From Candidatus Nanoarchaeia archaeon (GTDB taxonomy: Bacteria > Patescibacteriota > Microgenomatia > Woykebacterales > RBG-16-39-9b), in NCBI GenBank assembly GCA_036514715.1, contig DATBWR010000004.1:9147-73146 (forward strand): a stretch of DNA of 64,000 bases. Direction: 5' to 3'. How positions within the stretch are numbered: the stretch's first letter is position 1; each line of letters opens with the position of its first letter. The notes beneath the pieces were generated by a model. The model made no database searches. It was not told the origin of the DNA and saw nothing but the letters and a program-made list of their open reading frames with translations. Made by a program: the position numbers and the translations under genes. Positions 1,761 to 48,129 of this stretch are shown piece after piece.

Positions 1761-3179
1761 ATGCCCAAAGAAAAAACCAAAGTTAGGACTAGGATTGCTC
1801 CGTCACCAACCGGTAGTCCCCACATCGGCACCGCCTACGCAGCCTTATTTAACTATTGTTTTGCCAAGCAAAACAGTGGTGATTTTGTCTTGCGTATTGA
1901 GGATACTGATCGAGCTAGGTTAGTAGAAGGTTCCGAAGAGGAGATTTATGAAGCTTTGAAGTGGCTTGGTTTGGAGCCGGACGAAAGTCCACAAAAGGAG
2001 GGAAAATTTGGACCCTATCGCCAATCGGAAAGGCTCGCAATTTATCGACAACAGCTAGAAAATTTGGTCAAGGAAGGTAAAGCCTATTACTGTGATTGTT
2101 CTCCCGATCGTCTTGAAAAATTGCGCAAAGAACAGCTCTCTAGAGGAGAAGCCCCTCATTACGATCAAAAATGTCGGCAAGAGCCACCCAAAAAGATTAA
2201 TAAGGTTGTAGTACGTTTGGCTGTTCCCCAAACAGGTGAGACTGTAGTTGAGGACAAAATCCATGGTAAAGTGGTCTTCCAAAACAACCTCATCGACGAT
2301 CAAGTACTCTTAAAATCAGATGGCTACCCAACTTACCACCTAGCTAGTGTGGTTGACGATCACTTAATGGAAATCTCCCATGTAATCCGCGCCGAAGAGT
2401 GGCTTTCCAGCACTCCAAAACATGTTTTACTTTACCAAGCCTTTGGTTGGAACTTACCCGAATTTGCCCACCTGCCGCTGCTTCGCAACCCTGATCGCAG
2501 TAAAATTAGTAAACGCAAGAATCCGGTAGCGATCAATTTTTATCGTGAACAAGGTTATTTACCAGAGGCACTACTTAATTTCTTGGGCTTGATGGGTTGG
2601 TCAATGCCAGACGGTAGGGAAATTTTTAGTTTGGATGAGATGGTTAAAAACTTTACCTTCGAAAGAGTTGATCCAAGCGGTCCGGTCTTTGACATAGATA
2701 AACTTTCTTGGTTGAACGGTGAATACATCCGTAAGTTGTCTGACCGGCAGTTGCTTGAGCGGTTAAAACCGTACACAAAATATTCACCAGAGCAAGTTCT
2801 CAAGGTCGTACCGCTGGTTAAAGAAAGACTAAAAAAACTATCAGAGTTCAACTCTCTGACTAGCTATTTTTTTGAAGAGCAGATTGATTTTGATCCTAAA
2901 TTGGCGGTGATAAAAAATCACTCAGAGGAAACGGTCAAGATTTATGAGGATATTAAGCAAACCTTTACTGGTTTGGAACCTTGGGATAAGAATTCTTTGG
3001 AGAAAGCTCTTGAAGTAAAACCACAAGAGTACGGTGTTTCTAAGACAGAGCTTTTTCAAAGTATCCGAGGTACTGTTACCGGTGGATTAACCTCACCTCC
3101 GCTCTACGACACCTTAGAGATGATCGGCAAAGAAAGGGTTGTTTCCAGAATTGGAACAGCGGTAGAGGAACTTAAGTAA
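1761..3179 (+). CDS. gltX: glutamyl-tRNA synthetase
   Basis: Class I signature PSPTGSPHIGTAYAALFNY (HIGH motif) and KISKR (KMSKS motif). A TATAAT at 1749-1754 lies 7 nt before the ATG. Confidence 0.9.
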   Translation: MPKEKTKVRTRIAPSPTGSPHIGTAYAALFNYCFAKQNSGDFVLRIEDTDRARLVEGSEEEIYEALKWLGLEPDESPQKEGKFGPYRQSERLAIYRQQLENLVKEGKAYYCDCSPDRLEKLRKEQLSRGEAPHYDQKCRQEPPKKINKVVVRLAVPQTGETVVEDKIHGKVVFQNNLIDDQVLLKSDGYPTYHLASVVDDHLMEISHVIRAEEWLSSTPKHVLLYQAFGWNLPEFAHLPLLRNPDRSKISKRKNPVAINFYREQGYLPEALLNFLGLMGWSMPDGREIFSLDEMVKNFTFERVDPSGPVFDIDKLSWLNGEYIRKLSDRQLLERLKPYTKYSPEQVLKVVPLVKERLKKLSEFNSLTSYFFEEQIDFDPKLAVIKNHSEETVKIYEDIKQTFTGLEPWDKNSLEKALEVKPQEYGVSKTELFQSIRGTVTGGLTSPPLYDTLEMIGKERVVSRIGTAVEELK

Positions 3180-3207: not shown

Positions 3208-4494
3208 ATGGACCAACCTGCCTACGCCAGTGAACTGCAAGAAGCTCAAGAAAGAGAAAAACACTTACGCTTTGAAAAAGTTGCCGAAAAGTCAACTTAC
3301 TTAGTTATTTTCGGCGGCTTACTACTGACCTTCCTACCGCTCTCTTTTCCTATCCAGAGAGGGAGCCTTTACATTCTTTTCACCCTTGCCCTGCTAGTTG
3401 CTTTTTTCTGGTTTAGATTGTTGCCCCAGAGCTTTATCAGCCCTCTTAAATCGTTTCTTTACTTCTTATTCTCAGTCAGTTTTATTTACCTAGGTGTTCA
3501 TTTTACGAACGGTATTCAAAGTTTTGTAGTTTTCATCTTTTATCTTTCAGTTTTGAGAGCAGCTGCGTTCATTAATCTGGTTGGTTTTGTTGCGATAGTC
3601 TTATTAATAACGACCCTACTATTAATTGAGGCCTATTTTTTTAACACCTACCTGTCTTTAGACCAACGCCTAAGTTTATGGGCGTTACACGCATGGGCTC
3701 TAGCGGTCATTGCTATCTTTGGCAGGTACATTTTTGACAAAGAGCAAAAAGCGGAGAGTTTGGAGGAGTCAGCTAAGCTTAAGACCGCCAAACAGATTGA
3801 TGCGGTAAAAAACGAGTTCGTTTTCTTGATATCAAAAAAACTCAAAAAACCACTCCTACTTTTAGAAAGCTACTTAGCAACCGCCCTTAAGAGCGTGGAT
3901 CAAAATTGGAGTAAGGAGCTGAGTGATTTCCTTAGTAAAGCCAGCGAAAATTCCCAGCGACTGGCTAATCTGGTCAACGATCTTTCTGATCTTTCTTCTG
4001 TCGAAAGCCAAAAACTGAGCTTAGAGAAAAAACCAGTGGATCTCAACCAAGTTGTTGGTTCTACCTTGTCCGATTTCAACATGCGGGCTGCCGAAAAGAA
4101 CATTACCCTCAGTTATCAACCTACAGGCGACAAGGTGCTGGTTTTGGCGGACCAGTCGCGCTTGCACGAAATTCTAGCCAACTTGGTTGATAACGCCATT
4201 AAGTATTCACCCAACTCAGCCGTAATACAAGTTAGTTTTGGACACGATGGAAAAATTGCCCAGGTGAATATTAAGGACAACGGTTTGGGAATTCCGGATG
4301 AGGCTAAAAACCATCTTTTTGAGAAGTTTTACCGGGTCAACCGCAGTAATAGTGAACCAAAAGGGACAGGCTTAGGGTTGTTTGTCACCAAAGAGTTAGT
4401 AGAAAGGCAAGGCGGTAAAGTTTGGTTTGAGAGCAAGGTAAACGAGGGAACTAATTTTCACTTTACCCTACCGTTAGCAGGTAATTATGGATAA
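3208..4494 (+). CDS. sensor histidine kinase (multi-TM N-terminus, HisKA, HATPase_c)
   Basis: N-terminal TM helices, then an H-box-like region and ATPase N/G boxes: NLVDNAIKYSP, DNGLGIP, GTGLGLFV. Confidence 0.85.
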   Translation: MDQPAYASELQEAQEREKHLRFEKVAEKSTYLVIFGGLLLTFLPLSFPIQRGSLYILFTLALLVAFFWFRLLPQSFISPLKSFLYFLFSVSFIYLGVHFTNGIQSFVVFIFYLSVLRAAAFINLVGFVAIVLLITTLLLIEAYFFNTYLSLDQRLSLWALHAWALAVIAIFGRYIFDKEQKAESLEESAKLKTAKQIDAVKNEFVFLISKKLKKPLLLLESYLATALKSVDQNWSKELSDFLSKASENSQRLANLVNDLSDLSSVESQKLSLEKKPVDLNQVVGSTLSDFNMRAAEKNITLSYQPTGDKVLVLADQSRLHEILANLVDNAIKYSPNSAVIQVSFGHDGKIAQVNIKDNGLGIPDEAKNHLFEKFYRVNRSNSEPKGTGLGLFVTKELVERQGGKVWFESKVNEGTNFHFTLPLAGNYG

Positions 4495-5785
4495 AGATAC
4501 TTCTGGTAAAGCTAATAACTCCGCTGATAAGACCGTTATCTGGAAAAGGCTTTTTCTAGCAACCGCGCTGGTTTTGGTAGGAGTATTAGTAGCCAGCTTG
4601 CCTTTACCTCACCCCCTGACTTCGCGTCCGGTTACTACTAATTTAACCGGTGTTTTACTAACCCTTGGCAGCCTGCTAGCAGGTTTGGTAGTTTGGTGGA
4701 GCCTGCTGGCGCAAAAGTTCTCACCGCAAGTGAGAACTTTTGTAGAGGTGCTCATTTACTTGACAGCTATTAACATAGTAGTCAAGTTTACCGGTGGTCT
4801 CTATAGTTACTTCACTTTTCTTTATTTCCTCCCCATCCTTTATTCAGCCAGTAACTTTACTGCTAGGTACAGCTGGGCGGTTTTTATTTTTACAGCCCTT
4901 ATTATGAGTTTTCACCTGCTCGATAATAACGGAAGCTCATTTTCCGGCTCTGTCAGCGCACTAATCCTTAATTTGTTTGGGGTTTGGCTGGTTAACGGTT
5001 TGGGTAGGTCTCTAGCAGAACAGCTCGAACTTATTCATCAACGTCAAGTTGAAATTCAACTCGAACAACTCAATAAACTTGACAAGATTAAAGACGAATT
5101 TGTCTTTATTATCGCTCACGAACTGAGAAGCCCAATTACAGCTATCAGGGGTTATTTGGAATTGATAACAACCGATAGTGCCTTGAAGATTTCGGAAAGC
5201 CTAAAAAGTCTTTTGCAGAAGAGCTTTAATACCAGTACTAAGTTGGCTAATTTAGTAGGGTTGCTGCTGGAGATTGCTCGGATTGAGACCGGTAAAATTC
5301 GCTTCTACTATCAAAAAATCGATCTTCGCGACTCTTTGGATTTTGTTACGGCAGCTCTTAGAAGCGAGGCGGCCCAAAAGGATATCCAAATTACTACTCA
5401 GGTTGAAAAAGAAAATATTGTTTCAGTTGACAAAGAACGTTTGGAGGAAATTCTTAACATCATTATTGGTAACGCTATTGAGTACACGAGAGAGCATGGG
5501 AAAATCTTGATCAGTAGTCAGTCAACTGAGAAAGAGATTATCCTCTCAATTTCTGATACTGGAGTCGGTATCGCACCGGACAAAAAGGACAAGATTTTCG
5601 AAAAAATTTCTTCTGATGATGATCAAAACGGAGAAGCAACAGTTAAAGAGTATAGGATAAGCTTATACGTTGCCAGGCAGTTGTTGGCTCTCATGAAAGG
5701 CGATATAACTTGTGAGAGTGTTGTGGGTAGGGGAACGACCTTTAACCTTTCGCTACCCCGCTATTGGAGTTGGGGGACCCCTTAG
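4487..5785 (+). CDS. sensor histidine kinase
   Basis: H-box FVFIIAHELRSPITAIRGYLEL. N/G boxes IIGNAIEYT, DTGVGI, GRGTTFNLSLP. Overlaps the upstream kinase gene by 8 nt. Confidence 0.85.
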   Translation: MDKDTSGKANNSADKTVIWKRLFLATALVLVGVLVASLPLPHPLTSRPVTTNLTGVLLTLGSLLAGLVVWWSLLAQKFSPQVRTFVEVLIYLTAINIVVKFTGGLYSYFTFLYFLPILYSASNFTARYSWAVFIFTALIMSFHLLDNNGSSFSGSVSALILNLFGVWLVNGLGRSLAEQLELIHQRQVEIQLEQLNKLDKIKDEFVFIIAHELRSPITAIRGYLELITTDSALKISESLKSLLQKSFNTSTKLANLVGLLLEIARIETGKIRFYYQKIDLRDSLDFVTAALRSEAAQKDIQITTQVEKENIVSVDKERLEEILNIIIGNAIEYTREHGKILISSQSTEKEIILSISDTGVGIAPDKKDKIFEKISSDDDQNGEATVKEYRISLYVARQLLALMKGDITCESVVGRGTTFNLSLPRYWSWGTP

Positions 5786-7073: not shown

Positions 7074-7140
7074 GCAACTTTTAAAAGCGAGTCATTGGAT
7101 AAAGAAATACCAGTGCCAACGCGAAACCTTGACTATAAGC

Positions 7141-7410
7141 TGTATAATCTGTTTAGCACTCAAAAACTAAAAAAAAGGGAATTTATCCGGGACATAGCTA
7201 ATTACCTATGGGGCGAAAAAGCCCTCCGTTTCTTCGGAAACGGGGACCGGTCTGTCTTGGCTGGTAAGAGACCAGCTTCAAACGGTTGTTAAGCGGAAGA
7301 CAGCGCGCTAATTAACAATCGATCTTGCACCCTCAAAACCCGAGCCACTGCGGTGGGGTTGGGTAGTTGTCTGACAGAGGGGCTCCCTGTTACCCGAATC
7401 TTCCACAGGT
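7141..7410 (+). ncRNA. putative tracrRNA-like structured RNA with a 3' anti-repeat (strand tentative)
   Basis: Extended -10 TGTATAAT at 7141-7148. Hairpin CCGTTTC-TTCG-GAAACGG (UUCG tetraloop) at about 7225-7242. Nested stems CTGTCTT...AAGACAG and GCTGGT-aagag-ACCAGC. The stretch 7381-7404 (GGCTCCCTGTTACCCGAATCTTCC) is complementary to repeat nt 6-26, giving 9-bp and 8-bp duplexes. It ends 49 nt before the first repeat. Confidence 0.5.
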
Positions 7411-7453
7411 TCAAGAAGCACGACTCCCGAAAGATTTCAAGCCTAACGGGGTT

Positions 7454-7706
7454 GTTGCATTCGGGTGCAAAACAGGGAGTAGAGTGTAACTTTCAAAAGC
7501 GCTGCCAGAACTATCAACACTAATAAGTTGCATTCGGGTGCAAAACAGGGAGTAGAGTGTAACAACAATCTTGATCATGAAACCACTCTTCATGTAAGTT
7601 GCATTCGGGTGCAAAACAGGGAGTAGAGTGTAACTCAAAAACAATGCTTCCGGTGTTGGCCAGTTTGATGTTGCATTCGGGTGCAAAACAGGGAGTAGAG
7701 TGTAAC
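7454..7706 (+). CRISPR. CRISPR array: 4 identical 37-nt repeats and 3 spacers of 36, 34 and 35 nt (transcribed strand uncertain)
   Basis: Repeat GTTGCATTCGGGTGCAAAACAGGGAGTAGAGTGTAAC occurs at 7454-7490, 7527-7563, 7598-7634 and 7670-7706. It carries an internal palindrome TTGCA-TTCGGG-TGCAA. Spacers are unique within the array. Confidence 0.95.
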
Positions 7707-7710
7707 AAAA

Positions 7711-7750
7711 TGGAGATGGTTTTCCCTTTACCATCTCCACTTTCTTCTTG
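7711..7750 (+). terminator. rho-independent terminator-like hairpin after the array
   Basis: Stem TGGAGATGG (7711-7719) pairs with CCATCTCCA (7731-7739) around an 11-nt loop, followed by CTTTCTTCTT. Confidence 0.6.
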
Positions 7751-7783: not shown

Positions 7784-8782
7784 GTGTTAATGCACGAAAC
7801 CCTTTTGATCGATAAACCAGGCACTTTTCTGGGTAAGAAAAGCAGAAGAGTGGTGGTCAAAACTCCTGATTCGACAGAAGAATTTCCTTTGCTAAAAATT
7901 AAAGAGATTAACCTTGTTGGAACCGGTATTTCTTTGTCCGACGACCTAGTTTACCAGGCAGTTAAGCAAGAAGTGCAGATAAATTTTCAGGACAGATTAG
8001 GTAGGGTTTACGCTAGTATAGTCTCACCCTTTCTTAATCAAACAGTGGCAACTGTTAGGGCTCAGATAGGAGCGGAAGACACAGAAAAAGCCGCTGGTCT
8101 TGCCAAGGAGATCGTTCTGGTCAAAATTGCCAACCAGGAAAAACTACTGAGGTATTTTCTTAAGCACCAAAGGGTTTATTATCCGACCAACGCAGAGAAA
8201 ATTGGAGAGTTGAGCAACACCCTAGACTCTTTGGGTGAACAACTGCTAGTTACAAGCTTCAAACCGCTTAATTATCATAATCAATTATTTTCTTTTGAAG
8301 GCAGAGCCTCGGACAGTTATTGGCGAGGGGTTAAGTTGTTGATAGGAGGCAAAGTTGATTTCCCGGGTCGTAAAGGTAGAGGCGCGAAAGATTTGGTGAA
8401 CAGTCTGCTCAATTACGGTTACGCCATTTTGTACTCGAGGGTTTTAGCAGCATTGTTGGCCAACGGCCTTTTACCCTTCGCCGGATTTCTTCACAAAGAC
8501 CGTTCTGGGAAAAGTTCTCTTGTTTTGGATATTATGGAAATCTTTCGCCAGAAGATTGTTGATGAAACTTTGTTGATCTTTTTGAACAAGAAAAAATTGG
8601 AACCTACACTTGACCAAAACACCCTTTTTGCCTTTTCACAAAAAGTAGTTGAGAGATTTTCCTCAACCGGAAGGTTCGTTGATAACAAAAACTACACAGT
8701 GGAGAAAATAATCAGCCTGCAGGTTCAAGGTATTGCCGCCTATCTACGCGGAAATAAAAATCTAAATTTAGTTTCTTTATGA
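7784..8782 (+). CDS. cas1: CRISPR-associated endonuclease Cas1
   Basis: Cas1 hallmark block DLVNSLLNYGYAILYSRVLAALLANGLLPFAGFLHKDRSGKSSLVLDIMEIFRQKIVDE. Start is GTG at 7784 or ATG at 7790. Confidence 0.92.
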   Translation: MLMHETLLIDKPGTFLGKKSRRVVVKTPDSTEEFPLLKIKEINLVGTGISLSDDLVYQAVKQEVQINFQDRLGRVYASIVSPFLNQTVATVRAQIGAEDTEKAAGLAKEIVLVKIANQEKLLRYFLKHQRVYYPTNAEKIGELSNTLDSLGEQLLVTSFKPLNYHNQLFSFEGRASDSYWRGVKLLIGGKVDFPGRKGRGAKDLVNSLLNYGYAILYSRVLAALLANGLLPFAGFLHKDRSGKSSLVLDIMEIFRQKIVDETLLIFLNKKKLEPTLDQNTLFAFSQKVVERFSSTGRFVDNKNYTVEKIISLQVQGIAAYLRGNKNLNLVSL

Positions 8783-9033
8783 AAGTTTTGGTAGTCTACG
8801 ATATTTCCCAAGACAAGGAGCGGGGAAAAGTTGCCGAGATTTGTCTGGATTACGGTCTGGAAAGAATTCAGAAGAGTGCTTTTCTTGGCGAACTTAGCGA
8901 AACTTTACGACAGCGGTTGGTGGGAGAATTGAAGGAAAAGCTAGTAGGTAAAACCTTTAACCTGCAGGTATTTGAGTTAGATAAGAATTCTGCTAAGAAG
9001 AGATTAGTTTTTGAGGCAAAAAAGAAGGGGTAA
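8779..9033 (+). CDS. cas2: CRISPR-associated endoribonuclease Cas2
   Basis: 84 aa beginning MKVLVVYDISQDKERGKVAEI...QKSAF. Overlaps cas1 by 4 nt (ATGA). Confidence 0.9.
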   Translation: MKVLVVYDISQDKERGKVAEICLDYGLERIQKSAFLGELSETLRQRLVGELKEKLVGKTFNLQVFELDKNSAKKRLVFEAKKKG

Positions 9034-9056
9034 TAGCTATCTGGCTACTACCCCTT
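9025..9056. terminator. bidirectional terminator hairpin between the convergent cas2 and effector genes
   Basis: AAGGGGTA (9025-9032) pairs with TACCCCTT (9049-9056) around a 16-nt loop. The hairpin spans both stop codons. It is T-rich on the minus-strand side (CTTCTTTTTTGC). Confidence 0.6.
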
Positions 9057-10497
9057 TGACGAATAACTCCTGTGCTCGACGGGCCAAGTTTAAGGCAGTG
9101 TTGAAACCGGTGTTGTGCCGTGTTCCGCAATTACCGCAATAAACAGTGGGTCCCTTCAGAGAGATTGGTTGATCACCTTCTTTATTGGCCGCTCCGCAAG
9201 TTGAACAAAGCATCTTGGCTGTTGCCGAGTAGACCGAATAAGGTTTAGGCAAACCTTCCTTAACCGCTTTGTAGCTGGTCAGATCGGCGAGTTTCCCAAA
9301 TGGCCAGTATGACAACCTCAGGTTGAGCCGGGGATTGTATCTACCTTTGGGGATGTTGCCTACCTGCTCGACGGCAGGAACGGATTTGAACCTTAAGGCT
9401 TCTTCGACAATCTGTGCCACCTGACGGTAGTGGAAAGTTTCCAGCTCCTGGGAAAAGGGTCCGCCTCGCCGGCGCAGACGTTCCAACCGAGCAAAGTAGG
9501 TTTTCTCGTACCGCCTTGCTGGTTCCTGACGTTGGTGGACGACATTTCCATCACGATTGATAACTACCACGGTTACTAGATGTTCCAAACCAAAAGATAC
9601 ACCCATGAAGTTTTCCACTTCAAGTAGTGGTTTGGTGGGGATCTCACAAGCGACATTGACGAAAATTCTGCCGTTACGTACCAAGAGTTCCACTCGTTTG
9701 GGTTGGAAGTCTTTCTCACGCAGTAGCACTTCCGAGAGCCACTTTTTGTCTGAACGACGGTGAGTTGCTTTCCAAGTGGGTGGGTTATTCTCGCCTCGTA
9801 TGAAAGTAGCCTCACCCCACTTATCAAACTGAAGTGGAAGTAACAAACCGCTTGTTGAGCGGCTTAGACGGGCAATTTCTTTCTCTCCAAAAACCTGCAG
9901 CGCTGGTCCGCGGTCGGGATCGTAGTTATTGGTGATGTCTTCCTGGTGACTACCTCTTGGGAAAAGAGGAAGGTAGAGATAAAGCTGGCCGGTAATTGAT
10001 TGTTCGTAGCAAACGAACGCCCCTGTCCAGACGATTGGAAACTGATCGCCTATACTTGGATAGCTGGTTTTATCCGTAAATTGCGGGTCCAGTTTCCGCT
10101 TCGCATACGAGAGCAGCAAGTCTGCGACCTTGTGGCGCAAACCGTTTTTAACAGCGGAACCAAGTTGGTAACCCCTGAAAGGGGCAATCTCTTCCAGCTT
10201 TCTTAAGACCCGCATATGTCCAGCCGTTCTTTTGATAGGCCGACCCTCTTTATCAAGAAGTTTTTTGCCGTCTGGATCAGTAGGTTCCCACCAAAGTAGT
10301 TCTTGGTAAGGTTCGAACCAACGCAAGCAGTCGGCAGCTGCCTTTCGAACCGATTGGTTAACCCCAAGTAGAAGGGACAATTTTTTCTGGGGCAACCATT
10401 GCCGCCGCCAAAGCTCGCTGCGGGTTCGATTTTCCGGTAAGTCGTTGAGGGGCAAAGACATTGCCAAAGTCAGGTGCAGAGTGTTTTCTTCTGCCAA
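9037..10497 (-). CDS. miniature TnpB/Cas12f(Cas14)-like type V effector candidate (486 aa) with apparently degenerate RuvC catalytic motifs
   Basis: RuvC-I-like MGVSFGLEHLVTVVV. RuvC-II-like AVEQVGNI. LSYWPFGKLADLTSYKAVKEGLP block. Zinc finger CSTCG...CGNCG, followed by HNTGFNTALNLARRA (cf. HxDxNAAxNIARR). The canonical Asp positions read S and G/T. Good SD sequence AAAGGAGAGAG before the ATG. Coding sequence has higher GC (~50%) than cas1/cas2. Confidence 0.7.
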   Translation of the reverse strand: MAEENTLHLTLAMSLPLNDLPENRTRSELWRRQWLPQKKLSLLLGVNQSVRKAAADCLRWFEPYQELLWWEPTDPDGKKLLDKEGRPIKRTAGHMRVLRKLEEIAPFRGYQLGSAVKNGLRHKVADLLLSYAKRKLDPQFTDKTSYPSIGDQFPIVWTGAFVCYEQSITGQLYLYLPLFPRGSHQEDITNNYDPDRGPALQVFGEKEIARLSRSTSGLLLPLQFDKWGEATFIRGENNPPTWKATHRRSDKKWLSEVLLREKDFQPKRVELLVRNGRIFVNVACEIPTKPLLEVENFMGVSFGLEHLVTVVVINRDGNVVHQRQEPARRYEKTYFARLERLRRRGGPFSQELETFHYRQVAQIVEEALRFKSVPAVEQVGNIPKGRYNPRLNLRLSYWPFGKLADLTSYKAVKEGLPKPYSVYSATAKMLCSTCGAANKEGDQPISLKGPTVYCGNCGTRHNTGFNTALNLARRAQELFVKGVVAR

Positions 10498-10553
10498 TTT
10501 CTCTCTCCTTTGGAAAATTGGTATTTAGTTTTGGTGTGCTTGAGGCAAGCCAA

Positions 10554-10582
10554 AGTATATACTACTATAAGACAAAATGCAA
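10554..10582 (-). promoter_or_regulatory. near-consensus sigma70-type promoter driving the effector gene
   Basis: On the minus strand: TTGCAT (10582-10577), 17-nt spacer, TATACT (10559-10554), about 50 nt upstream of the effector ATG. Confidence 0.55.
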
Positions 10583-10628: not shown

Positions 10629-11201
10629 TTAAAGACGGGTTTGGCAAGAGTCGCAGACTGCCCGCGCAACAAATTGGTGGCTGTCAGGGCTAGTTGAGTC
10701 GGCTCGGAGTTCAAAAACAACATTCGCACCGCAGTGAGGACACTTGTAAAAATTCAAAAAGGGGTAATCTTGGGAGAGTTTGATCACGTCCCCGTAACTG
10801 TCACGTGGAGAAATACGGTAAGTTCTTAACACTGTAGCGTCGGTCAACTCTTTAATCTTGGAAATAATCTCGTTAGGAGAAAAGTTGGTTTTAAGCAAGT
10901 AATCGCGAGCTCCTAAGGAAAGCGCTTTTTTAATATTCTCATCATTGGCAACATTACTTAAAACAATTACCGGGATTGTTTTGAGTTTGGGGTTAGCAGC
11001 TAGAAACTCTAAAACTTGGAGACCGCTCACCTTTGGCATCAAAATATCAAGAAGGATAAGATCAGGGCTAACAGAAGCGATTTTATCAATCGCCTCCTGA
11101 CCGTCAGCAGCGGTTTCAACTAGGTAACCCTCAAAGGTCAGCCGGTCGGAATAAATTTTTCGGAGAATTTCTTCATCATCCGCGATTAATATTTTTTTCA
11201 T
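10629..11201 (-). CDS. response regulator: REC domain fused to a C-terminal Cys4 zinc ribbon (no HTH output domain)
   Basis: REC motifs ILIADDEE, DLILLDILMP, VIVLSNVAN. C-terminus CPHCGANVVFELRADSTSPDSHQFVARAVCDSCQTRL. Confidence 0.8.
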   Translation of the reverse strand: MKKILIADDEEILRKIYSDRLTFEGYLVETAADGQEAIDKIASVSPDLILLDILMPKVSGLQVLEFLAANPKLKTIPVIVLSNVANDENIKKALSLGARDYLLKTNFSPNEIISKIKELTDATVLRTYRISPRDSYGDVIKLSQDYPFLNFYKCPHCGANVVFELRADSTSPDSHQFVARAVCDSCQTRL

Positions 11202-12622
11202 GGCAAGTTTTTAACCTGTGGTAAAACGAAAGCAAAGGTGCTTCCTTTTCCTTCCTCAGAGGCAAACCAAAGCTTACCCTTTTGTTTCTCAACTAACTGT
11301 TTGACTGTGTACAATCCTAATCCGGTGCCGGTAGAAGCTTTACTGAGAGGATTTTCAACTCGGGAAAACTTCTTAAACAGATCTTTCTGGCGATTTTTTG
11401 GGATGCCAACACCACTATCCTTGACCAAAAACCAAACACCCTCTGAGTTAGTCATGACCCTGGCTTGTATTGTACCGCCCTCAAAAGTGTATTTCAAGGC
11501 ATTATCAAGAAGGTTGCTCATGATTTCCTTAGTTTTGTCGGGGTCAACCCAGACCTCGTGTTGATTGTTGTCCAGAGACAGAAGAAGATTTTGGGATTTC
11601 CTACCTGCCTGCATTTTTAAGCTTTCGACAACCTCTTTGGCAATTGTGCCTAGATCAACTGCTTGGATCTTGAACTGAATTCTTCCTTGTTCGAGTCGGG
11701 AGATATTCAGTAAATCATTAACTAGATTGATCATGCGGTCATTAGCCACGGAAAGCAAGTTTAAATATTCTGTTTGTTTCGAATTTAAAGGTCCGGCCAC
11801 ATTGTCGGCCAAGAGTTCAATTAAGCCTTTGATTTCCGAAAGCGGCGTGCGTAGCTGGTGTGAAGCAATGGAGATAAGGTCATTACGCATCTCCTCGAGT
11901 TCCTTTTCTCGGCTGACATCACGAAAAACGACAATACCGCCAACGATAATACCTTTTTGATTTCTGATCGGTGAGGAGTTAACCGCAACGGGTACTCTGT
12001 TCTGATTAGCTGTGACCATTACCGTTTCAGAGGGCAAGTTGAAAGACTTGCCTTCCAGTAAAACCTTGTCAATGAAGCTTCCGTATGGAGTTTTAGTTTT
12101 TAGATCAACGAATTGCAAAATCTGGTCATAGCGCTGCCTCAGAACCTGATCTCTGGAGAAACCCACCAGCTGCTCAGCCGCGTGGTTAAAGACAATTATT
12201 TCACTTCTTAAATTGACGGCGAAAACGCCTTCACCAACGTTTAGTAGAATTGCTTCCGCTCGGTCTTTGGATTCTTCAGCAACCCTAATTCTTTCTTTGA
12301 GAGCGTTGCGGAAGGTCTCTAGTGACCTGACTACTTCCCCAAACTCATCACTACTTTTTGACTCAATTGTCTCCTCCAGATTAGTTGTTATTAAGCGCAG
12401 AAGGAGATGAGTGTAAAACCCAAGTTTCTTTTTAGCGATGCTGGTTAAGATAAAAGCCAGTATTACAAACAAGGAAAGAAAAACAGCCAAGATCGGCAGA
12501 AGATTAATAACAACAAAACTTTCAGGAAGCAGCCAGATGACAATGAGCTCTCCTAAGGTAAGGAGAGAAACGATTAAAACTGTTTTTGGAACAATACCGA
12601 CTTTAAACATGAGCAGACTCAA
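11198..12622 (-). CDS. sensor histidine kinase with PAS domain (2 TM, PAS, HisKA, HATPase_c)
   Basis: PAS-like NVGEGVFAVNLRSEIIVFNHAAEQLVGFSRDQV. H-box SIASHQLRTPLSEIKGLIELL. N/G boxes LLDNALKYT, DSGVGIP, GTGLGLYTVKQLVE. Its stop overlaps the response-regulator start by 4 nt. Start is TTG at 12622 or ATG at 12610. Confidence 0.85.
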   Translation of the reverse strand: MSLLMFKVGIVPKTVLIVSLLTLGELIVIWLLPESFVVINLLPILAVFLSLFVILAFILTSIAKKKLGFYTHLLLRLITTNLEETIESKSSDEFGEVVRSLETFRNALKERIRVAEESKDRAEAILLNVGEGVFAVNLRSEIIVFNHAAEQLVGFSRDQVLRQRYDQILQFVDLKTKTPYGSFIDKVLLEGKSFNLPSETVMVTANQNRVPVAVNSSPIRNQKGIIVGGIVVFRDVSREKELEEMRNDLISIASHQLRTPLSEIKGLIELLADNVAGPLNSKQTEYLNLLSVANDRMINLVNDLLNISRLEQGRIQFKIQAVDLGTIAKEVVESLKMQAGRKSQNLLLSLDNNQHEVWVDPDKTKEIMSNLLDNALKYTFEGGTIQARVMTNSEGVWFLVKDSGVGIPKNRQKDLFKKFSRVENPLSKASTGTGLGLYTVKQLVEKQKGKLWFASEEGKGSTFAFVLPQVKNLP

Positions 12623-25762: not shown

Positions 25763-28387
25763 ATGTCGACTAAAGCCAAACCTAAATCCCACGGAAAGGA
25801 GTTTTCTTCCGTAAGGAAGCAGTCCCCGCAGGGGTTTAAGTTTTCGGAAAAGCTGCAGAAAAAGTTGGAAAGCGTAATTGCCGACGAGGCTAAAACTCAG
25901 CTAGATGGGATCAGGCAAAAAGTTTTTATGGACCGCTACTCCTTAAAAGATGGCGAAGGTAAAGCGGTGGAAGAACATCCCGAACAAATGTGGCGTCGGG
26001 TGGCAGCCGGTTTAGCGCAGGTTGAAAAAACTGCCCAAGATCAAAAGGACTGGACCCAAAAATTTTATTCAGCTCTCAAAGATTTTAAATATGTACCCGG
26101 CGGTCGGGTCCTTTCCGGGGCCGGTACTCCCTATGAGGTAACTTTTTACAATTGTTTTGTTATTCCCTCACCCCACGATTCCCGCAACGGCATTGTTGAT
26201 AACTTGAAATTAATGATCGATATTATGAGCCGCTCCGGTGGAGTTGGCATCAACCTTTCTTCTCTTCGTCCACGAGGAGCTCGGGTCAAGAAAGTTAACG
26301 GCACTTCCTCCGGGCCGGTCAATTGGGCAGAGCTTTATTCAACCGCTACGACTGATGTTATTCAACAAGGTGGATCTCGACGTGGTGCCTTGATGCTGAT
26401 GATTGATGACTGGCACCCGGATATTGAAGAGTTTATCGAAGTTAAAAAAGACCTTTCCCGAATTAATGGAGCTAACCTTTCAGTTTGCGCTTCGGATGAG
26501 TTTATGGAAGCAGTGAAAAAGAACGCCGATTGGGACCTTTACTTCCCTGATCTCACCGATCCGGATTACGACCGGGTTTGGGACGGCGATATTGAAAAAT
26601 GGAAAGCTCTAGGCAAAAAAGTCGTTCTCTACAAAACTGTTAAAGCAGCCGAAGTTTGGGAAAAGATTTGTCAGGCGGCTTGGGCTTCGGCCGAACCGGG
26701 TTTGCACTTTATTGGTCGGAGTAACTCTCGTAGCAACACTTGGTATTTTGAAAAACTCATTGCCACTAACCCCTGCGGCGAACAGCCTCTTGGGGCTTGG
26801 GCGGTATGTAATTTAGGGGCGATGAATTTGTCAGCTTTCGTTAACGAAAACAGCGAGTTTGACTACCAGGATTTGGAAGACAAGGTGCGGATTGCTATCC
26901 GGATGATGGACAATGTTATTGATGCAACCGGTTACTACTTCCCGGAAAATAAGGCTCAACAGATGGGCATCCGACGCACTGGTTTAGGAACCATGGGTTT
27001 GGGCGATGCTTTAATTAAAATGAAGTTGCGTTACGGTGCAGATGAGGCTCAAGGCGTAATTGAAAAAATCTACAAGACCATTCGTGATGCTGCCTACAGT
27101 GAAAGCGCTGCCCTTTCAGTTGAAAAAGGATCTTTCCCCAATTACAAAAAAGCAAAATACTTACAAGGTTGGTTCATCAAAAAACTTCCTAAAGAAATTC
27201 GTGATCTGATCGCCAAAAACGGCATCCGCAACGCAGTTCTTCTTACCCAAGCTCCCACCGGAACCACCAGTTTACTTTCCGGTGTCTCTAGCGGCATTGA
27301 GCCGGTTTATGATTTTGCCATGGTACGTCGGGATCGCACTGGTGAACACGTTCTTTATCACCCCCTTTATGAAGCTTGGAAAAAAGCCAATCCAGAGGTA
27401 GAGGTTGCTCCGGACTATTTTGTTAGTGCTAACGATTTGACTCCTGAAGATCATGTAAAAGTACAGGCCCTGGTACAGGATTACACTGATTCTTCTATTT
27501 CTAAGACTGTTAACGCACCCAATGCCCACACGGTTGAGGAAGTTCGACAGCTTTACATGCAGGCTTATGAACTGGGGTGCAAGGGCGTTACCTACATGAG
27601 GGACGGTTCCCGCGAAGGAGTGCTTTCTCACGAAGCCGGAGAGAAAACTAGTAGTGAGCACTCTGCAGCGGCTACCCTCCAACCGGTCTACTTGCGAAAG
27701 AGACCCGATTATCTTCACGGAGTGACGCGGAGGATTGCAACTCCAGTGGGACACGCCTTTGTGACTATTAATGAAGATGAGGCTGGTAATCCTTTTGAAG
27801 TTTTCATCAACGTTGGCAAGGCCGGCAGCGATATCACTGCGGATGCGGAAGCAATCGGTCGGTTAATTTCTTTGGCGCTACGTATCCCTTCGAATTACTC
27901 GCCCGCCGAAGTAGTGCAACAAGTGGTTAACCAACTCTCCGGAATTGGTGGCAGCAGTTCCCGTGGTTTTGGTATTGACCGCATCCACTCACTAGCCGAT
28001 GCCCTTTCCAAGGTCTTGGCAGAATATACTGGAAAGGGCAGCACCTACCCCTCTGTCGAAGAAGGAAAGGTAGCAGCTACTAACGGTAACGGTTTGCCTG
28101 CAACTAACGGGCATACTAATGGCAACACCAACGGTCAAAATAACGGGCACACAAGGGACGGTCAGGCAATTGTTCAAGCTAAAGAGTCGGTCGAAGTAGG
28201 TGAAGCCCCTGCCCTGATAAGCGAGCTTTCAGGAGGGCAAATTTTGCAGGCTTCAGGTGTTGAAAGTGAAAAGCCAATGGGCTTGCAGCCCAAGCGCTTT
28301 GACCTTTGCCCCAAATGTGGAGTGGCTTCCTTTGTTCACGAAGAAGGTTGCAGTAAGTGCATGAACTGCGGCCACTCCGAGTGCTAG
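25763..28387 (+). CDS. nrdJ: adenosylcobalamin-dependent (class II) ribonucleotide reductase
   Basis: NPCGEQPL active-site loop and a C-terminal Cys cluster CPKCG...CSKCMNCGHSEC. Low-complexity insert ATNGNGLPATNGHTNGNTNGQNNGHT. Confidence 0.9.
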   Translation: MSTKAKPKSHGKEFSSVRKQSPQGFKFSEKLQKKLESVIADEAKTQLDGIRQKVFMDRYSLKDGEGKAVEEHPEQMWRRVAAGLAQVEKTAQDQKDWTQKFYSALKDFKYVPGGRVLSGAGTPYEVTFYNCFVIPSPHDSRNGIVDNLKLMIDIMSRSGGVGINLSSLRPRGARVKKVNGTSSGPVNWAELYSTATTDVIQQGGSRRGALMLMIDDWHPDIEEFIEVKKDLSRINGANLSVCASDEFMEAVKKNADWDLYFPDLTDPDYDRVWDGDIEKWKALGKKVVLYKTVKAAEVWEKICQAAWASAEPGLHFIGRSNSRSNTWYFEKLIATNPCGEQPLGAWAVCNLGAMNLSAFVNENSEFDYQDLEDKVRIAIRMMDNVIDATGYYFPENKAQQMGIRRTGLGTMGLGDALIKMKLRYGADEAQGVIEKIYKTIRDAAYSESAALSVEKGSFPNYKKAKYLQGWFIKKLPKEIRDLIAKNGIRNAVLLTQAPTGTTSLLSGVSSGIEPVYDFAMVRRDRTGEHVLYHPLYEAWKKANPEVEVAPDYFVSANDLTPEDHVKVQALVQDYTDSSISKTVNAPNAHTVEEVRQLYMQAYELGCKGVTYMRDGSREGVLSHEAGEKTSSEHSAAATLQPVYLRKRPDYLHGVTRRIATPVGHAFVTINEDEAGNPFEVFINVGKAGSDITADAEAIGRLISLALRIPSNYSPAEVVQQVVNQLSGIGGSSSRGFGIDRIHSLADALSKVLAEYTGKGSTYPSVEEGKVAATNGNGLPATNGHTNGNTNGQNNGHTRDGQAIVQAKESVEVGEAPALISELSGGQILQASGVESEKPMGLQPKRFDLCPKCGVASFVHEEGCSKCMNCGHSEC

Positions 28388-28439
28388 TTGACAAGACTTT
28401 AACAAACCTTTAGAGTGAGTATACTTTAAAAATTTAGAG

Positions 28440-28545
28440 CAAAGGATTAATTGGTGAAAGGCCGTGGAATTCGGCCGGACTGCCGGTACTGTTATACCCA
28501 GAACCCAACCTTTGTGTTCCTTCGAGCAAGGGAGGTGTTGATGAG
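28440..28545 (+). ncRNA. structured leader, possible cobalamin-riboswitch-like element (low confidence)
   Basis: GGTGAAAGG, hairpin GGCCG-UGGAAUU-CGGCC (cf. the GUGAAAAUC loop of B12 elements), and GCCGGUACUGU (cf. GCCACUGU). It lies immediately upstream of the terminator at 28554-28590. Confidence 0.3.
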
Positions 28546-29104: not shown

Positions 29105-29638
29105 ATGCAAAAGATTTTGGAAAAACTCTCTAATCCACTAATTTTTGTTCTGATCGCAGCGACTTTGCGGGTAGTACCACACGCGCCGAACTTTGCACCG
29201 ATTGGTGCCATGGCTTTGTTTGGTGGAGCCTACCTTGGTCGAAAGTGGGCAATTGCCTTGCCACTTGTGGCGATGTTTCTCTCCGACCTTTTCATCGGAT
29301 TTGACAGCTTAACTTCGAGATTGACTGTTTATGGCAGCTTTGCGCTGATTGGGTTAATTGGAATGTGGCTGAAAAACCACCGTTCATTCCAAAACGTAGT
29401 TTTGGCAGCGCTGGGATCGTCCGTCTTGTTCTTTGTCACCACTAATTTCGGTGTTTGGGCGTTTGGAACTCTTTACCCAAAAACTGCCGAGGGTTTGGTA
29501 GCCTGTTTTGTTGCTGCCATCCCTTTCTTTAGAAACACTCTGATGGGCGATCTATTCTACACCACAGTTTTCTTTGGTGGTTATGAGTTGGTTAAGGCTT
29601 TGGTGAAAAGTAGAAAATTGGCAGTTTTGAAGGGATAA
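29105..29638 (+). CDS. small integral membrane protein (ECF S-component-like; candidate vitamin transporter)
   Basis: 177 aa, about 5 TM helices; PNFAPIGAMALFGG. Confidence 0.4.
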   Translation: MQKILEKLSNPLIFVLIAATLRVVPHAPNFAPIGAMALFGGAYLGRKWAIALPLVAMFLSDLFIGFDSLTSRLTVYGSFALIGLIGMWLKNHRSFQNVVLAALGSSVLFFVTTNFGVWAFGTLYPKTAEGLVACFVAAIPFFRNTLMGDLFYTTVFFGGYELVKALVKSRKLAVLKG

Positions 29639-45627: not shown

Positions 45628-45895
45628 GTTCAAGGGCTTTGGCCTTCCGACCAAGGGCAAAGTTGAGAGCATGAGTAACTGCTAGACCCACCCGGATGCC
45701 AGTGTAAGAGCCAGGCCCGACCTTTGCGGAAAAGCTGTCAATCTCCTTAAGTTTAAGACCGGCTTTTTTCAAGGCTGCCTCGATAGCAGCTAGGGGTGAG
45801 TCTTTGGTGATTGTGACCAAAACCTTGCCGTCTTCTTTAATTTCGACCTTGGCTTCTTTGGCGACCGTGGTGTCTAAAAGTAGCTCTTTACTCAT
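45614..45895 (-). CDS. minimal TsaB/YeaZ-like protein (N-terminal half only, 93 aa)
   Basis: LLLDTT...KVGPGSYTGIRVGLAVTHALNFALG. Bounded on both sides, so a full-length version cannot fit. Confidence 0.55.
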   Translation of the reverse strand: MSKELLLDTTVAKEAKVEIKEDGKVLVTITKDSPLAAIEAALKKAGLKLKEIDSFSAKVGPGSYTGIRVGLAVTHALNFALGRKAKALEPKYQ

Positions 45896-48129
45896 ATTTT
45901 GGGAACAGAGGCAGCGAAGTTTTTCTTTTCACTCTCTTGTCTCATTTCGTCCAAAACTGATCTTTCTGCGATCCTTAAAGTGAAAATAAAACTAGAGCCT
46001 TTACCAACCTCACTTTTTACCCAAATTTTGCCACCTAAGAGTTCGACGTAATTTTTAGTAATGTAAAGCCCTAAGCCCGTCCCCCCGCTGGTAGCAGCAG
46101 CAGCGTAAGAGTTTTCCAAACGTCCGTACTTGGTGAAGAGCTTATCGATTCCCTCCTTGGTCATACCGACTCCGGTGTCAGTTACTGAGATTTCCACAAA
46201 ACCAGCCTCTTGAGAAAGAGAAGATTTAACGGTAATTTTACCTTTTTCAGGAGTAAATTTAATGGCGTTGCCAACCAAATTTTGGAGAATTTCCGGGAAG
46301 CGCTGCTTATCTAAAATAACCTTGGGTAATTTAGGTTGTTCTTCATAGGTAAGGACGATCTTCTTCTCATCCGTCTTGGAAGCGATTTCCGCAAAAACTT
46401 GGTCCACGAGTGGTTTCAGGGCGGCTTCTTCAAAATTAAGCTGCACCCTGCCAGCCTCAATTCGAGAGACATTAAGAAGATCGTTGATCAAAGCGATCAT
46501 GCGTTCGGAACTGGTGTAGGAAACATCCAAATAATGCTTGAGCTTTTCGTTTTTAATCTCTCCGGCCCGGCCGTTTAAGGCCATCCACAAGTAACTTTTA
46601 ATCGCGGTCATAGGAGTGCGTAAATCATGAGAGGCAATGGAGAGAAATTCGTCTTTGAGCTTATCAATTTCCTTAAGAGCCTCGTTGGCTTTCTTCAGTT
46701 CACGAGTAGCCCTCTCTACCTGTTCTTTCAAAGTGATGTTGAAGCGGCGGATTTTTTCAACGGACTTTGCATTTTCAAAAGAGATGGCAGCCTCAGGTGA
46801 AAAGATCTCAAGAACTTTAATGTCTTTGGATGAATAAATCTCGCCAGAAGCTTTTTCCCCTAAGAGCAAAACTCCAACGTGGTCAATCTGAGTTTTCAGA
46901 GGGATAACTACAGTCACGTCCAGCCGCCGCAACAGTTCTTTGGTCGCACCTTCCTCAAGATCCTCAAAAACCAGGTTTTTGTCAATGGCTTCTAGTGAAA
47001 AGACATCTTTTTCGGAAAAAGAAGGCTCTTTTTTGTAGCCAGAAGTTTCACTAACAAAGATTTTGCCGGCATCGGTTAGAACAAAGGCGCCGCGGGTGAT
47101 GCGCATTTGGGCCAAAATTTTCTCAAGCAGTTTGTGGGCAATATCATCGATTAAAATCGTTTCCGCCATGGTTCTTGTAAGGTCAGAAAGCAGCACAGTA
47201 GACTCGTAATCCTCTTTAAAGAAGATCCGATCAGTAACGTGCTCAAAGAAGCGCCGTAGAGGTTGGAAGGTGAAGGCCACGACTAAAGTTAGTGAAGCGT
47301 AAATTAGTAGCTGTGCCGTAGAAGTAGTAGTTCTGAAAAGGAAGTTAGTAAGTAGAACAGTTGACCCAATGTAAAAAATTGCAATCGAGAAAACCAAAAG
47401 TGAGTAAGCCACCGTCCTCGCCACCACCAGCCGAATATCCAGCAACCGGTGCCTGACAATAGCATAAGCGGTTGCACCAAGAAAGAGCACAAAACCGTAA
47501 ATTCCTAAGCGGGTTATAGCTGGTGTAACGTTAATTAACTGAGGAAGCACTACGTTAGTCAAAACTGCTATAACTGAGGTTGAAATTAGTCCTAGCAAGA
47601 CGTAAAAAGTTTGAGACTTCTCGACTCCCACTAGAGTTTTAAACTTTATGAAAAGAGCAACCGCACTAATTAAAACTACGTATAAGAAAGAGTAGACCGA
47701 AAACAAGTCTCCTAAGGGTCCGTAGGTAAATTTAACCCTATTTCCAACTATTTCTACATAGGCGATTAAGTCTGTAAAAGAAAGAACTATTAAAAGCAGA
47801 GTTGGTATGAATAACAACAAATCTCTTTTCACGTGTAACTTTGCTTTAGGAAAGTTTAGCGAGAAAAGTAAGAACACATAGGCTATTAGGGACGCACTTG
47901 CGTAGTCCAAGCTCTTAAGGAGGTTTATTACAGATCTCCCAAAAGTCTCATCTTCGGAGAAACTGACAAAAGACCAAAAAGCCATTAAGAGGGATAGGGC
48001 AGCAAAAAGCCTGTTAGTCCAGTTCTTTGGATTTCTAGTAATTACTAGAAGACCAAGGAGAAGGTTAGCAACAATTATCGAAACCGCAAGTATTAAATCA
48101 AGACGCATCTTGGCTAGGTTTTTCTCCAA
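45892..48129 (-). CDS. sensor histidine kinase with large polytopic N-terminal domain
   Basis: About 10 TM helices, coiled coil, H-box SIASHDLRTPMTAIKSY. N/G boxes LVGNAIKFT, DTGVGM, GTGLGLYITKN. Confidence 0.85.
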   Translation of the reverse strand: MEKNLAKMRLDLILAVSIIVANLLLGLLVITRNPKNWTNRLFAALSLLMAFWSFVSFSEDETFGRSVINLLKSLDYASASLIAYVFLLFSLNFPKAKLHVKRDLLLFIPTLLLIVLSFTDLIAYVEIVGNRVKFTYGPLGDLFSVYSFLYVVLISAVALFIKFKTLVGVEKSQTFYVLLGLISTSVIAVLTNVVLPQLINVTPAITRLGIYGFVLFLGATAYAIVRHRLLDIRLVVARTVAYSLLVFSIAIFYIGSTVLLTNFLFRTTTSTAQLLIYASLTLVVAFTFQPLRRFFEHVTDRIFFKEDYESTVLLSDLTRTMAETILIDDIAHKLLEKILAQMRITRGAFVLTDAGKIFVSETSGYKKEPSFSEKDVFSLEAIDKNLVFEDLEEGATKELLRRLDVTVVIPLKTQIDHVGVLLLGEKASGEIYSSKDIKVLEIFSPEAAISFENAKSVEKIRRFNITLKEQVERATRELKKANEALKEIDKLKDEFLSIASHDLRTPMTAIKSYLWMALNGRAGEIKNEKLKHYLDVSYTSSERMIALINDLLNVSRIEAGRVQLNFEEAALKPLVDQVFAEIASKTDEKKIVLTYEEQPKLPKVILDKQRFPEILQNLVGNAIKFTPEKGKITVKSSLSQEAGFVEISVTDTGVGMTKEGIDKLFTKYGRLENSYAAAATSGGTGLGLYITKNYVELLGGKIWVKSEVGKGSSFIFTLRIAERSVLDEMRQESEKKNFAASVPKI

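Follow-up and report, generated by a model that had tools for sequence, protein, structure and literature searches.

Cas14u.3, a Cas12f-like effector predicted to be nuclease-dead, encoded beside a tracrRNA-like RNA, a CRISPR array and cas1-cas2

Can a CRISPR (short palindromic repeats, clustered and regularly interspaced) locus that keeps its spacer-acquisition genes be served by an effector whose nuclease site has been replaced? This question is raised by a 64,000-nucleotide stretch of contig DATBWR010000004.1, here called the window, in which a minus-strand open reading frame (ORF) at 9037..10497 encodes a protein of 486 amino acids. A first-pass annotation, made from the letters alone, had read the product as a miniature TnpB/Cas12f-like type V effector with replaced RuvC-I and RuvC-III aspartates, and had taken the combination for one that is not a described subtype. 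The first reading held (see below); the second is contradicted by the databases. The window protein is identical at 485/486 positions to QBM02146.1, deposited as 'CRISPR-associated protein Cas14u.3 [uncultured archaeon]', the start residue being the sole difference, and also matches HEY4694500.1; the QBM accessions are consecutive and follow the window gene order (GluRS QBM02152, Cas14u.3 QBM02146, response regulator QBM02145, GAPDH QBM02141). Cas14u.3 is a catalogued protein typed as V-F and, judged from its sequence, a naturally nuclease-dead Cas12f-like effector that keeps both a tracrRNA (trans-activating CRISPR RNA) and an adaptation module.

The V-F assignment agrees with the GenBank name and with the PADLOC 'Cas12f / CAS-V-F' profile PDLC01691, which matched the effector over residues 9-477 (E 7.4e-102, 340 bits), a full-length match, so typing tools would call the locus V-F. 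A Cas12f2 identity was rejected, since NCBIfam NF049972 gave 57 bits against a cutoff of 450. The claim of novelty is further weakened by published surveys, in which Cas12f branches with altered catalytic sites have been noted (PMC10691335, PMC12669027); RuvC inactivation arose repeatedly in type V: binding is how V-C and V-M work, and the like is predicted for V-O and V-P (PMC12669027). Our literature search found nothing on the function of Cas14u.3, on a dead triad with cas1-cas2 in its family or on its tracrRNA, but a prior description is possible, as the Cas14 discovery paper lay outside that search. The Cas14u names reportedly come from that paper, by Harrington and colleagues in 2018.

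Fold and catalytic positions of Cas14u.3

The ORF and every motif quoted for it by the first-pass annotation were located on the minus strand. The protein consists of a WED/REC half (residues 1-290) and a RuvC region (296-480) with the motifs GVSFG (299-303), AVEQVG (375-380), LSYWPFG (395-401) and HNTGFN (461-466), and a zinc ribbon of the form CxxC..CxxC (C431/C434/C454/C457) spans residues 431-457 (window 9124-9207, minus strand). Type V (Cas12) is defined by a single large effector with a TnpB-like split RuvC and a zinc-ribbon/TNB insert, adjoined by a CRISPR array, and Cas14u.3 shows all of these traits. The AlphaFold2 monomer model had a predicted local distance difference test score (pLDDT) of 75, mostly above 85 in the RuvC region, and its top Foldseek match was AsCas12f (8j12_A, E 2e-17); similarity to Cas12m was weaker than to Cas12f. 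Together with the full-length V-F profile match, the model supports a Cas12f/TnpB fold for 9037-10497, although identity to the solved Cas12f chains is only 11-17%.

Of the three catalytic positions, RuvC-I has Ser301 (codon 9595-9597) and RuvC-III has Gly464 (codon 9106-9108) in place of Asp, and RuvC-II retains its Glu, Glu377 (codon 9367-9369; all on the minus strand), so the intact D-E-D triad of V-F enzymes is missing. Three alignments fixed this register. In the first, phmmer against the PDB placed GVSFG on GVDVG of ISDra2 TnpB (8bf8), with Ser301 on the RuvC-I Asp, and HNTGFN on HDRDEN of ISDra2 TnpB and HNRDIN of LaTranC (9jfo), with Gly464 on the RuvC-III Asp. In the second, a search of the family profile against the PDB laid VE(t)vG on the strand that bears the RuvC-II Glu in TnpB and Cas12f chains. 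The third is the outgroup alignment described below. The corresponding residues of Un1Cas12f1 were mutated as D326A and D510A to give RuvC active-site mutants (PMC7229846); unlike Cas12f, which cuts DNA through its D-E-D RuvC, Cas14u.3 naturally has Ser and Gly there.

The replacement extends to the whole family. A search of a 5.8-billion-protein set gave 12 clusters, formed at 90% identity, which share 38-67% identity with the window protein, and a profile re-search of the same set returned the same 12. None of these (0/12) has Asp at the RuvC-I or the RuvC-III column: the former holds Ser or Ala and the latter Gly in nine members, Asn in two and Thr in one. As an outgroup we aligned 132 relatives, each of at least 330 amino acids, to the family hidden Markov model; column 301 was Asp in 83 and His in 20 of them, column 377 was Glu in 120/132, column 464 was Asp in 108/132, and 80/132 had the complete D-E-D. 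In the family, conserved acidic residues of the RuvC half are limited to E366 and E377, and a conserved replacement Asp, Glu or His was looked for there and not found beyond these two. The substitutes are small and variable, the signature of inactivation and not of a rearranged active site. Judged from these alignments, the loss of both aspartates is neither chance nor sequencing error.

The effector genes are under purifying selection. Coding sequences were intact in 8/8 family members with DNA available, synonymous sites are saturated in the family (proportion of synonymous differences, pS, 0.72-0.84; nonsynonymous divergence, dN, 0.26-0.69), and the two pairs that are unsaturated at synonymous sites gave dN/dS of ~0.10 and ~0.12. 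The family alignment has 62 invariant columns, which include the four zinc-ribbon cysteines and several WED/REC motifs. Searches for further members added little: in the GTDB species genomes the sole match was the contig already known, and the JGI metagenomes yielded three loci, one of them new and one partial. IMG/VR held no family members and thus gave no hint of carriage by phages. One segment, FDKWGEATFIR..PPxWK..R (effector residues 224-247, window 9760-9828), is invariant in the family and largely missing from the sister clades; it coincides with part of residues 225-262, the one long run that the model predicts with low confidence (pLDDT <50), and is a candidate RNA-, PAM- (protospacer-adjacent motif) or partner-binding element.

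The gene starts with TTG, and reading of the sequence placed an AGGAG ribosome-binding site 8 nt upstream (10509-10505, minus strand). The near-consensus promoter of the first-pass annotation was overstated: the best candidate, within 10505..10582 on the minus strand (TTGCAT at 10582-10577, a 17-nt spacer and TATACT at 10559-10554), is weak, with 8/12 matches, and was not flagged by a consensus scan with a threshold of 9/12. The gene is, as noted before, richer in G+C (49.9%) than cas1 (41.0%) and cas2 (40.4%); effector genes across all family members have 50-55% G+C, so the higher value in the window is a family property.

Beyond the family, homologues were matched by the C-terminal half only. 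In the nearest clade (~19 clusters, one labelled Patescibacteria) a conserved His stands where the RuvC-I Asp would be, and the Glu and the RuvC-III Asp are kept. Its loci have cas1 without cas2 and two inverted CRISPR arrays that flank the cas1-cas12 pair. The proteins are 500-550 amino acids long (P0014, P0161, P0165, P0170), the loci lie at L013 1-4500, L014 4300-7827 and L015 4000-7979, and the two arrays of L013 (16-586 and 3454-4016) have spacers in common as reverse complements. The active site of this clade may be rearranged and the geometry of its arrays unusual, or the assembly may be at fault.

A more distant protein, P0026 (494 amino acids; GCA_001824325.1, MHXC01000002.1, L017 6001-9100), is 26% identical to the window effector in the RuvC half only, and scored 725 bits on another PADLOC profile, PDLC01689. 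Its triad columns read Ser/Glu/Ala, and its locus, like that of Cas14u.3, places the effector next to cas1-cas2 and an array whose repeat starts with GTTGCA; the P0026 order is a co-directional cas12-cas1-cas2-array, whereas the Cas14u.3 gene is convergent. A dead triad next to cas1-cas2 is found here too, so a nuclease-less effector beside an adaptation module would not be a one-off, and the state, being common to two distant families, appears to be old and stable. Several relatives of 650-900 amino acids (P0028, P0033, P0038, P0041, P0056 and P0064) have Ser or Thr at RuvC-I and a gap or a non-Asp residue at the RuvC-III column. The 'GVSFGL' RuvC-I motif common to these longer relatives hinted at kinship with Cas12k, which was rejected because they match the V-F profile PDLC01689 and no Cas12k profile.

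The adaptation genes, the array and the tracrRNA-like RNA

On the plus strand the window locus runs from a 380-nt non-coding stretch through the CRISPR array to cas1 and cas2, with the effector gene convergent to them. The first-pass annotation was right in placing the effector beside intact cas1-cas2. The cas1 gene (7784..8782, plus strand) encodes 332 amino acids (Pfam Cas_Cas1, E 9.8e-62, 209 bits; TIGR00287, E 3.4e-64), and cas2 (8779..9033, plus strand), which overlaps it by 4 nt, encodes 84 (Pfam CRISPR_Cas2, E 2.1e-16; TIGR01573, E 2.6e-14). Cas1 aligned end to end with Cas1 of A. fulgidus (4n06, E 1.2e-37) and conserves FEGRAS, GFLH and LDIME, which we take to be the catalytic motifs (Glu/His/Asp(Glu)); with these and a canonical Cas2 partner the adaptation module appears, from sequence, to be complete. 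Between the convergent cas2 and effector genes a G+C-rich hairpin (9025..9056; 13-pair stem with 6 GC pairs) is followed by CTTTTTT, a T-run on the minus strand.

The same unit was found in six related loci (L001, L002, L003, L005, L006 and L010), where the effector gene is convergent with cas2-cas1, and the array and the conserved non-coding region are present where the contig reaches them. Outside the unit the genes differ in every locus. The window flanks encode GluRS, histidine kinases, a glycerate-kinase-like protein, a response regulator, GAPDH and RpiB. Neither transposase nor Tn7-like genes occurred in the flanks of the window or of the six related loci, which hold housekeeping or regulatory genes, in agreement with the earlier reading of the window, and no partner nuclease is conserved across the loci. 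RecB-like (TM0106 family) or PD-(D/E)xK genes stand beside the unit in L001 (6404-7879 and 11410-12117) and L005 (4189-5717); their similarity to Cas4 is weak and below cutoff, and they are absent from the window, L002 and L003. The gene directly upstream of the effector gene encodes a response regulator with a C-terminal zinc ribbon.

The array (7454..7706, plus strand) holds a 37-nt repeat (GTTGCATTCGGGTGCAAAACAGGGAGTAGAGTGTAAC) in four identical copies, with three spacers (36, 34 and 35 nt) between them. Past the last repeat lies a terminator-like hairpin (7704..7746, plus strand; 17-nt arms, 9-nt loop) followed by CTTTCTTCTT, and a matching hairpin with a T-run is found at the same place after the array of L001. 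Arrays of the related loci range from 1.5 to 7 repeats; their spacers are unrelated, and the 3' end of the repeat, GAGTGYAAC, is conserved. The repeat next to cas1 is degenerate in L002, L005 and L010, so the leader is on the side of the tracr region; this and the hairpin with T-run indicate transcription from the tracr region into the array on the plus strand, and therefore a crRNA (CRISPR RNA) with the repeat 5' and the spacer 3', as is typical of type V.

The non-coding stretch contains a tracrRNA-like RNA at 7189..7405 (plus strand; predicted ends), with a conserved 5' GGGACATAGCTAATTACCTATGGGG and a 3' ATCTTCC that pairs with the 5' GGGA. In six loci, with effector proteins that are only 38-62% identical, the region is conserved upstream of the array and has the invariant blocks GGGACATAGCTRATTGCCTATGGGG, ACCCTCAAAACC and GGTA.T..TCT.AC.GAGGG. 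RNAalifold predicted 56 pairs; over five sequences 88% of the cells were paired, against 37-51% with the partners slid by 1-3 columns, compensatory changes occurred in 29 pairs against 4-12 with slid partners, and 0/500 shuffles reached the observed covariation score. The sixth sequence (L010) showed further compensatory changes. Directly 3' of the conserved GAGGGGC block lies an anti-repeat, GCTCCCTGTTACCCGAAT (7382-7399, plus strand), which pairs with the repeat segment ATTCGGGT..AACAGGGAG. Whole-region RNA duplex energies did not discriminate between real and shuffled repeats (z -1.9 to +0.5), and the own-repeat pairing test was restricted to the homologous anti-repeat segment in their place; there, the RNA paired best with the repeat of its own locus in 5/5 loci (chance ~0.0003). 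The long tracrRNA expected of V-F thus has a counterpart in a predicted structured RNA beside the array, whose anti-repeat co-varies with the repeat. Rfam gave nothing at gathering score for the region and only noise in an E-value search. Two listed ORFs overlap the tracrRNA-like region and the array, 7095-7292 (plus strand, 65 amino acids) and 7411-7740 (minus strand, 109 amino acids), the latter translating the repeats; they are almost certainly not genes.

Proposed binding without cutting and the competing explanations

Cas14u.3 resembles Cas12f1/Cas14a (Un1Cas12f1 and AsCas12f, V-F) in several respects: they are its best structural matches, share the 400-700-amino-acid size class and the order WED, REC, RuvC and zinc ribbon, and use a long tracrRNA with a crRNA and repeats of 36-37 nt that start with GTTGCA and end with GCAAC or GTAAC. 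Archaeal Cas14 loci also have cas1-cas2 close by (PMC7229846). In what it might do with an inactive RuvC, Cas14u.3 is better compared with other subtypes. Cas12m and Cas12c keep a RuvC site that processes pre-crRNA; Cas12m is not known to use a tracrRNA, and Cas12c is about 1200 amino acids long. crRNA-guided binding by Cas12m and Cas12c blocks transcription with no cleavage of target DNA (PMC12669027; PMC11013384, PMC10442227), and these V-M and V-C proteins are the closest functional precedents. V-M lacks adaptation genes and V-C is associated with cas1 only (PMC10691335), so in carrying cas1 the latter is like the window locus. Unlike V-M, the window locus has a tracrRNA-like RNA and cas1-cas2, and it does not belong to that subtype.

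Cas12k sits inside Tn7-like transposons with a wider set of transposition genes (tnsB, tnsC, tniQ), and TnsC and TniQ are present in the solved recruitment complex 8bd5. Unlike this V-K CRISPR-associated transposon, which is without cas1/cas2 (PMC10691335), the window locus and the six related loci have cas1-cas2 and no transposon genes, and fall outside V-K. Natural dCas12f proteins likewise lack cas1-cas2 (PMC12259090). Natural dCas12f and TldR proteins owe their inactivity mostly to a truncated C-terminus that lacks RuvC-III, have lost cas1-cas2 and mostly the array too, are linked to rpoE or helix-turn-helix (HTH) genes and target host promoters. In contrast, the Cas14u.3 family retains the RuvC-III/zinc-ribbon region, a dual-RNA guide and the adaptation module; the window effector has a full-length C-terminus with the zinc ribbon and an NxALNLA helix, and no rpoE/HTH linkage is conserved across the loci, a sigma-70 gene being found 5.5 kb off in L001 only.

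An RNA-guided DNA binder or silencer, as in the first-pass annotation, is the most economical reading of the effector. We favour, with a probability of roughly 0.55, the view that Cas14u.3 is the effector of a complete chromosomal CRISPR locus and interferes by dual-RNA-guided DNA binding, without cutting. We infer RNA processing, dimerisation, PAM dependence, the lack of any cleavage and a silencing outcome. The tracrRNA-like RNA and the array would be transcribed on the plus strand, possibly as one transcript; once anti-repeat and repeat had paired, the dual guide would be matured by an RNase of the host (probably RNase III). The guide-loaded effector, perhaps as a Cas12f-like dimer, would make an R-loop on PAM-flanked double-stranded DNA. 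As such an effector could not cut, interference would be by occupancy, which would keep the invader from being transcribed or replicated, the mode shown for Cas12m and Cas12c. Cas1-Cas2 would go on supplying new spacers. More tentatively, and at a little under even odds, we propose a self-updating CRISPR in which Cas1-Cas2 feed a non-cutting 486-amino-acid dual-RNA-guided binder as the only effector. This binder would protect small-genome bacteria either as a roadblock to the transcription or replication of invaders or through an unlinked host factor that it recruits.

If it only binds, the locus keeps a full adaptation module without a nuclease, which bears on how binding-only interference pays in tiny genomes. 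It would then be the smallest natural 'CRISPRi' (CRISPR interference) effector with its own adaptation module, distinct from V-C, which has cas1 only and a RuvC still active on RNA, from V-M, which lacks adaptation genes, and from V-K, which is carried by transposons. For CRISPRi, base-editor or activator fusions it would also offer a natural hypercompact (486 amino acids) scaffold of the Cas12f type, nuclease-dead and supplied with its cognate tracrRNA. Note that typing by 'V-F / Cas12f' profiles does not imply a cutting enzyme, as at least two V-F-typed families have dead triads (PDLC01691 and PDLC01689/P0026).

Several observations weigh against interference by binding. The main weakness is that for 18 spacers no protospacer was found: blastn-short of all spacers against the 64-kb window and all fetched loci returned the arrays themselves only, exact 20-mers of seven spacers had 0 matches in IMG/VR, and the 18 spacers had no match to INPHARED phages (blastn 'distant' mode). 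The arrays are short (3-6 spacers), and L001 and L009, from different samples, have identical spacers and thus give no sign of recent acquisition. The family has only 12 known members. Lastly, Glu377 is retained in 11/12 members and an Asp occurs five residues past the RuvC-I position in 10/12, and the effector may yet have some non-canonical or RNA-directed catalytic activity.

We rank the rival explanations, likeliest first, as a residual, non-canonical or recruited nuclease, host-gene regulation, and decay. It is improbable, yet the most serious of the three, that the effector still destroys its target, either at a non-canonical site (the retained Glu377 with other residues, or one formed across a dimer) or by recruiting an unlinked host nuclease. 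No part of the protein is better conserved than the RuvC domain, TnpB/Cas12 lineages with rearranged and apparently active sites are documented (PMC10691335), and the sister clade has exchanged its RuvC-I Asp for His with Glu and RuvC-III Asp retained. The residues that replace the aspartates in the Cas14u.3 family, however, are unable to bind metal and unconserved in identity, the pattern of inactivation, and no other Asp, Glu or His is conserved in the RuvC half. As to a recruited enzyme, the RecB-like or PD-(D/E)xK genes near L001 and L005 would be the candidates, but their absence from the window, L002 and L003, their scores below the Cas4 cutoff and the lack of a conserved partner argue against it.

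A little less probable is a domesticated RNA-guided regulator of host genes, comparable to TldR or to CRISPR-associated dCas12f repressors, with no part in immunity. Natural nuclease-dead TnpB and Cas12f do act as repressors or activators (PMC12259090, PMC10691335), the window locus lies among two-component regulators, and short arrays, which do not differ between L001 and L009 (one organism, two samples), would suit such a role. Such a regulator is hard to reconcile with the conserved Cas1 motifs and with cas1-cas2 in every locus long enough to show it; different loci have unrelated spacers, the decay of terminal repeats is like that of active arrays, no spacer matched the 64-kb window or the fetched loci outside its own array, and the flanking genes are not conserved. 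A decaying remnant on its way to pseudogenisation, which the two lost catalytic residues and the rarity of the family (12 clusters among 5.8 billion proteins) might suggest, is strongly disfavoured by ORFs that are all intact across lineages with saturated synonymous divergence and dN/dS of ~0.1, by the 62 invariant columns with all four zinc-ribbon cysteines, by a partner RNA conserved with compensatory changes and by a second distant family in the same state.

Host and neighbouring features

The source genome is labelled 'uncultured archaeon' or 'Candidatus Nanoarchaeia archaeon' in the GenBank and Third Party Annotation records. This label looks wrong, and the gene content indicates a bacterial host, plausibly from the Candidate Phyla Radiation. 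The window encodes a bacterial class-I release factor (PCRF + RF-1), an M23 peptidase and a bacterial-type GluRS (genes at 59722-60798, 56858-58027 and 1761-3179), as well as many two-component systems, and SecA, SecDF and sigma-70 genes are found in L001. Groundwater and Hainich samples are named in the records of L001 and L003. Histidine kinases and response regulators (3208-5785, 10629-12622 and 45892-48129) are unusually dense for what appears to be a small-genome groundwater bacterium. An AdoCbl-II (B12) riboswitch aptamer was found at 28439-28515 (plus strand; 40.4 bits, above gathering score). It is preceded, at a distance of about 50 nt, by the gene of a B12-dependent ribonucleotide reductase (25763-28387) and followed by the ORF at 29105-29638.

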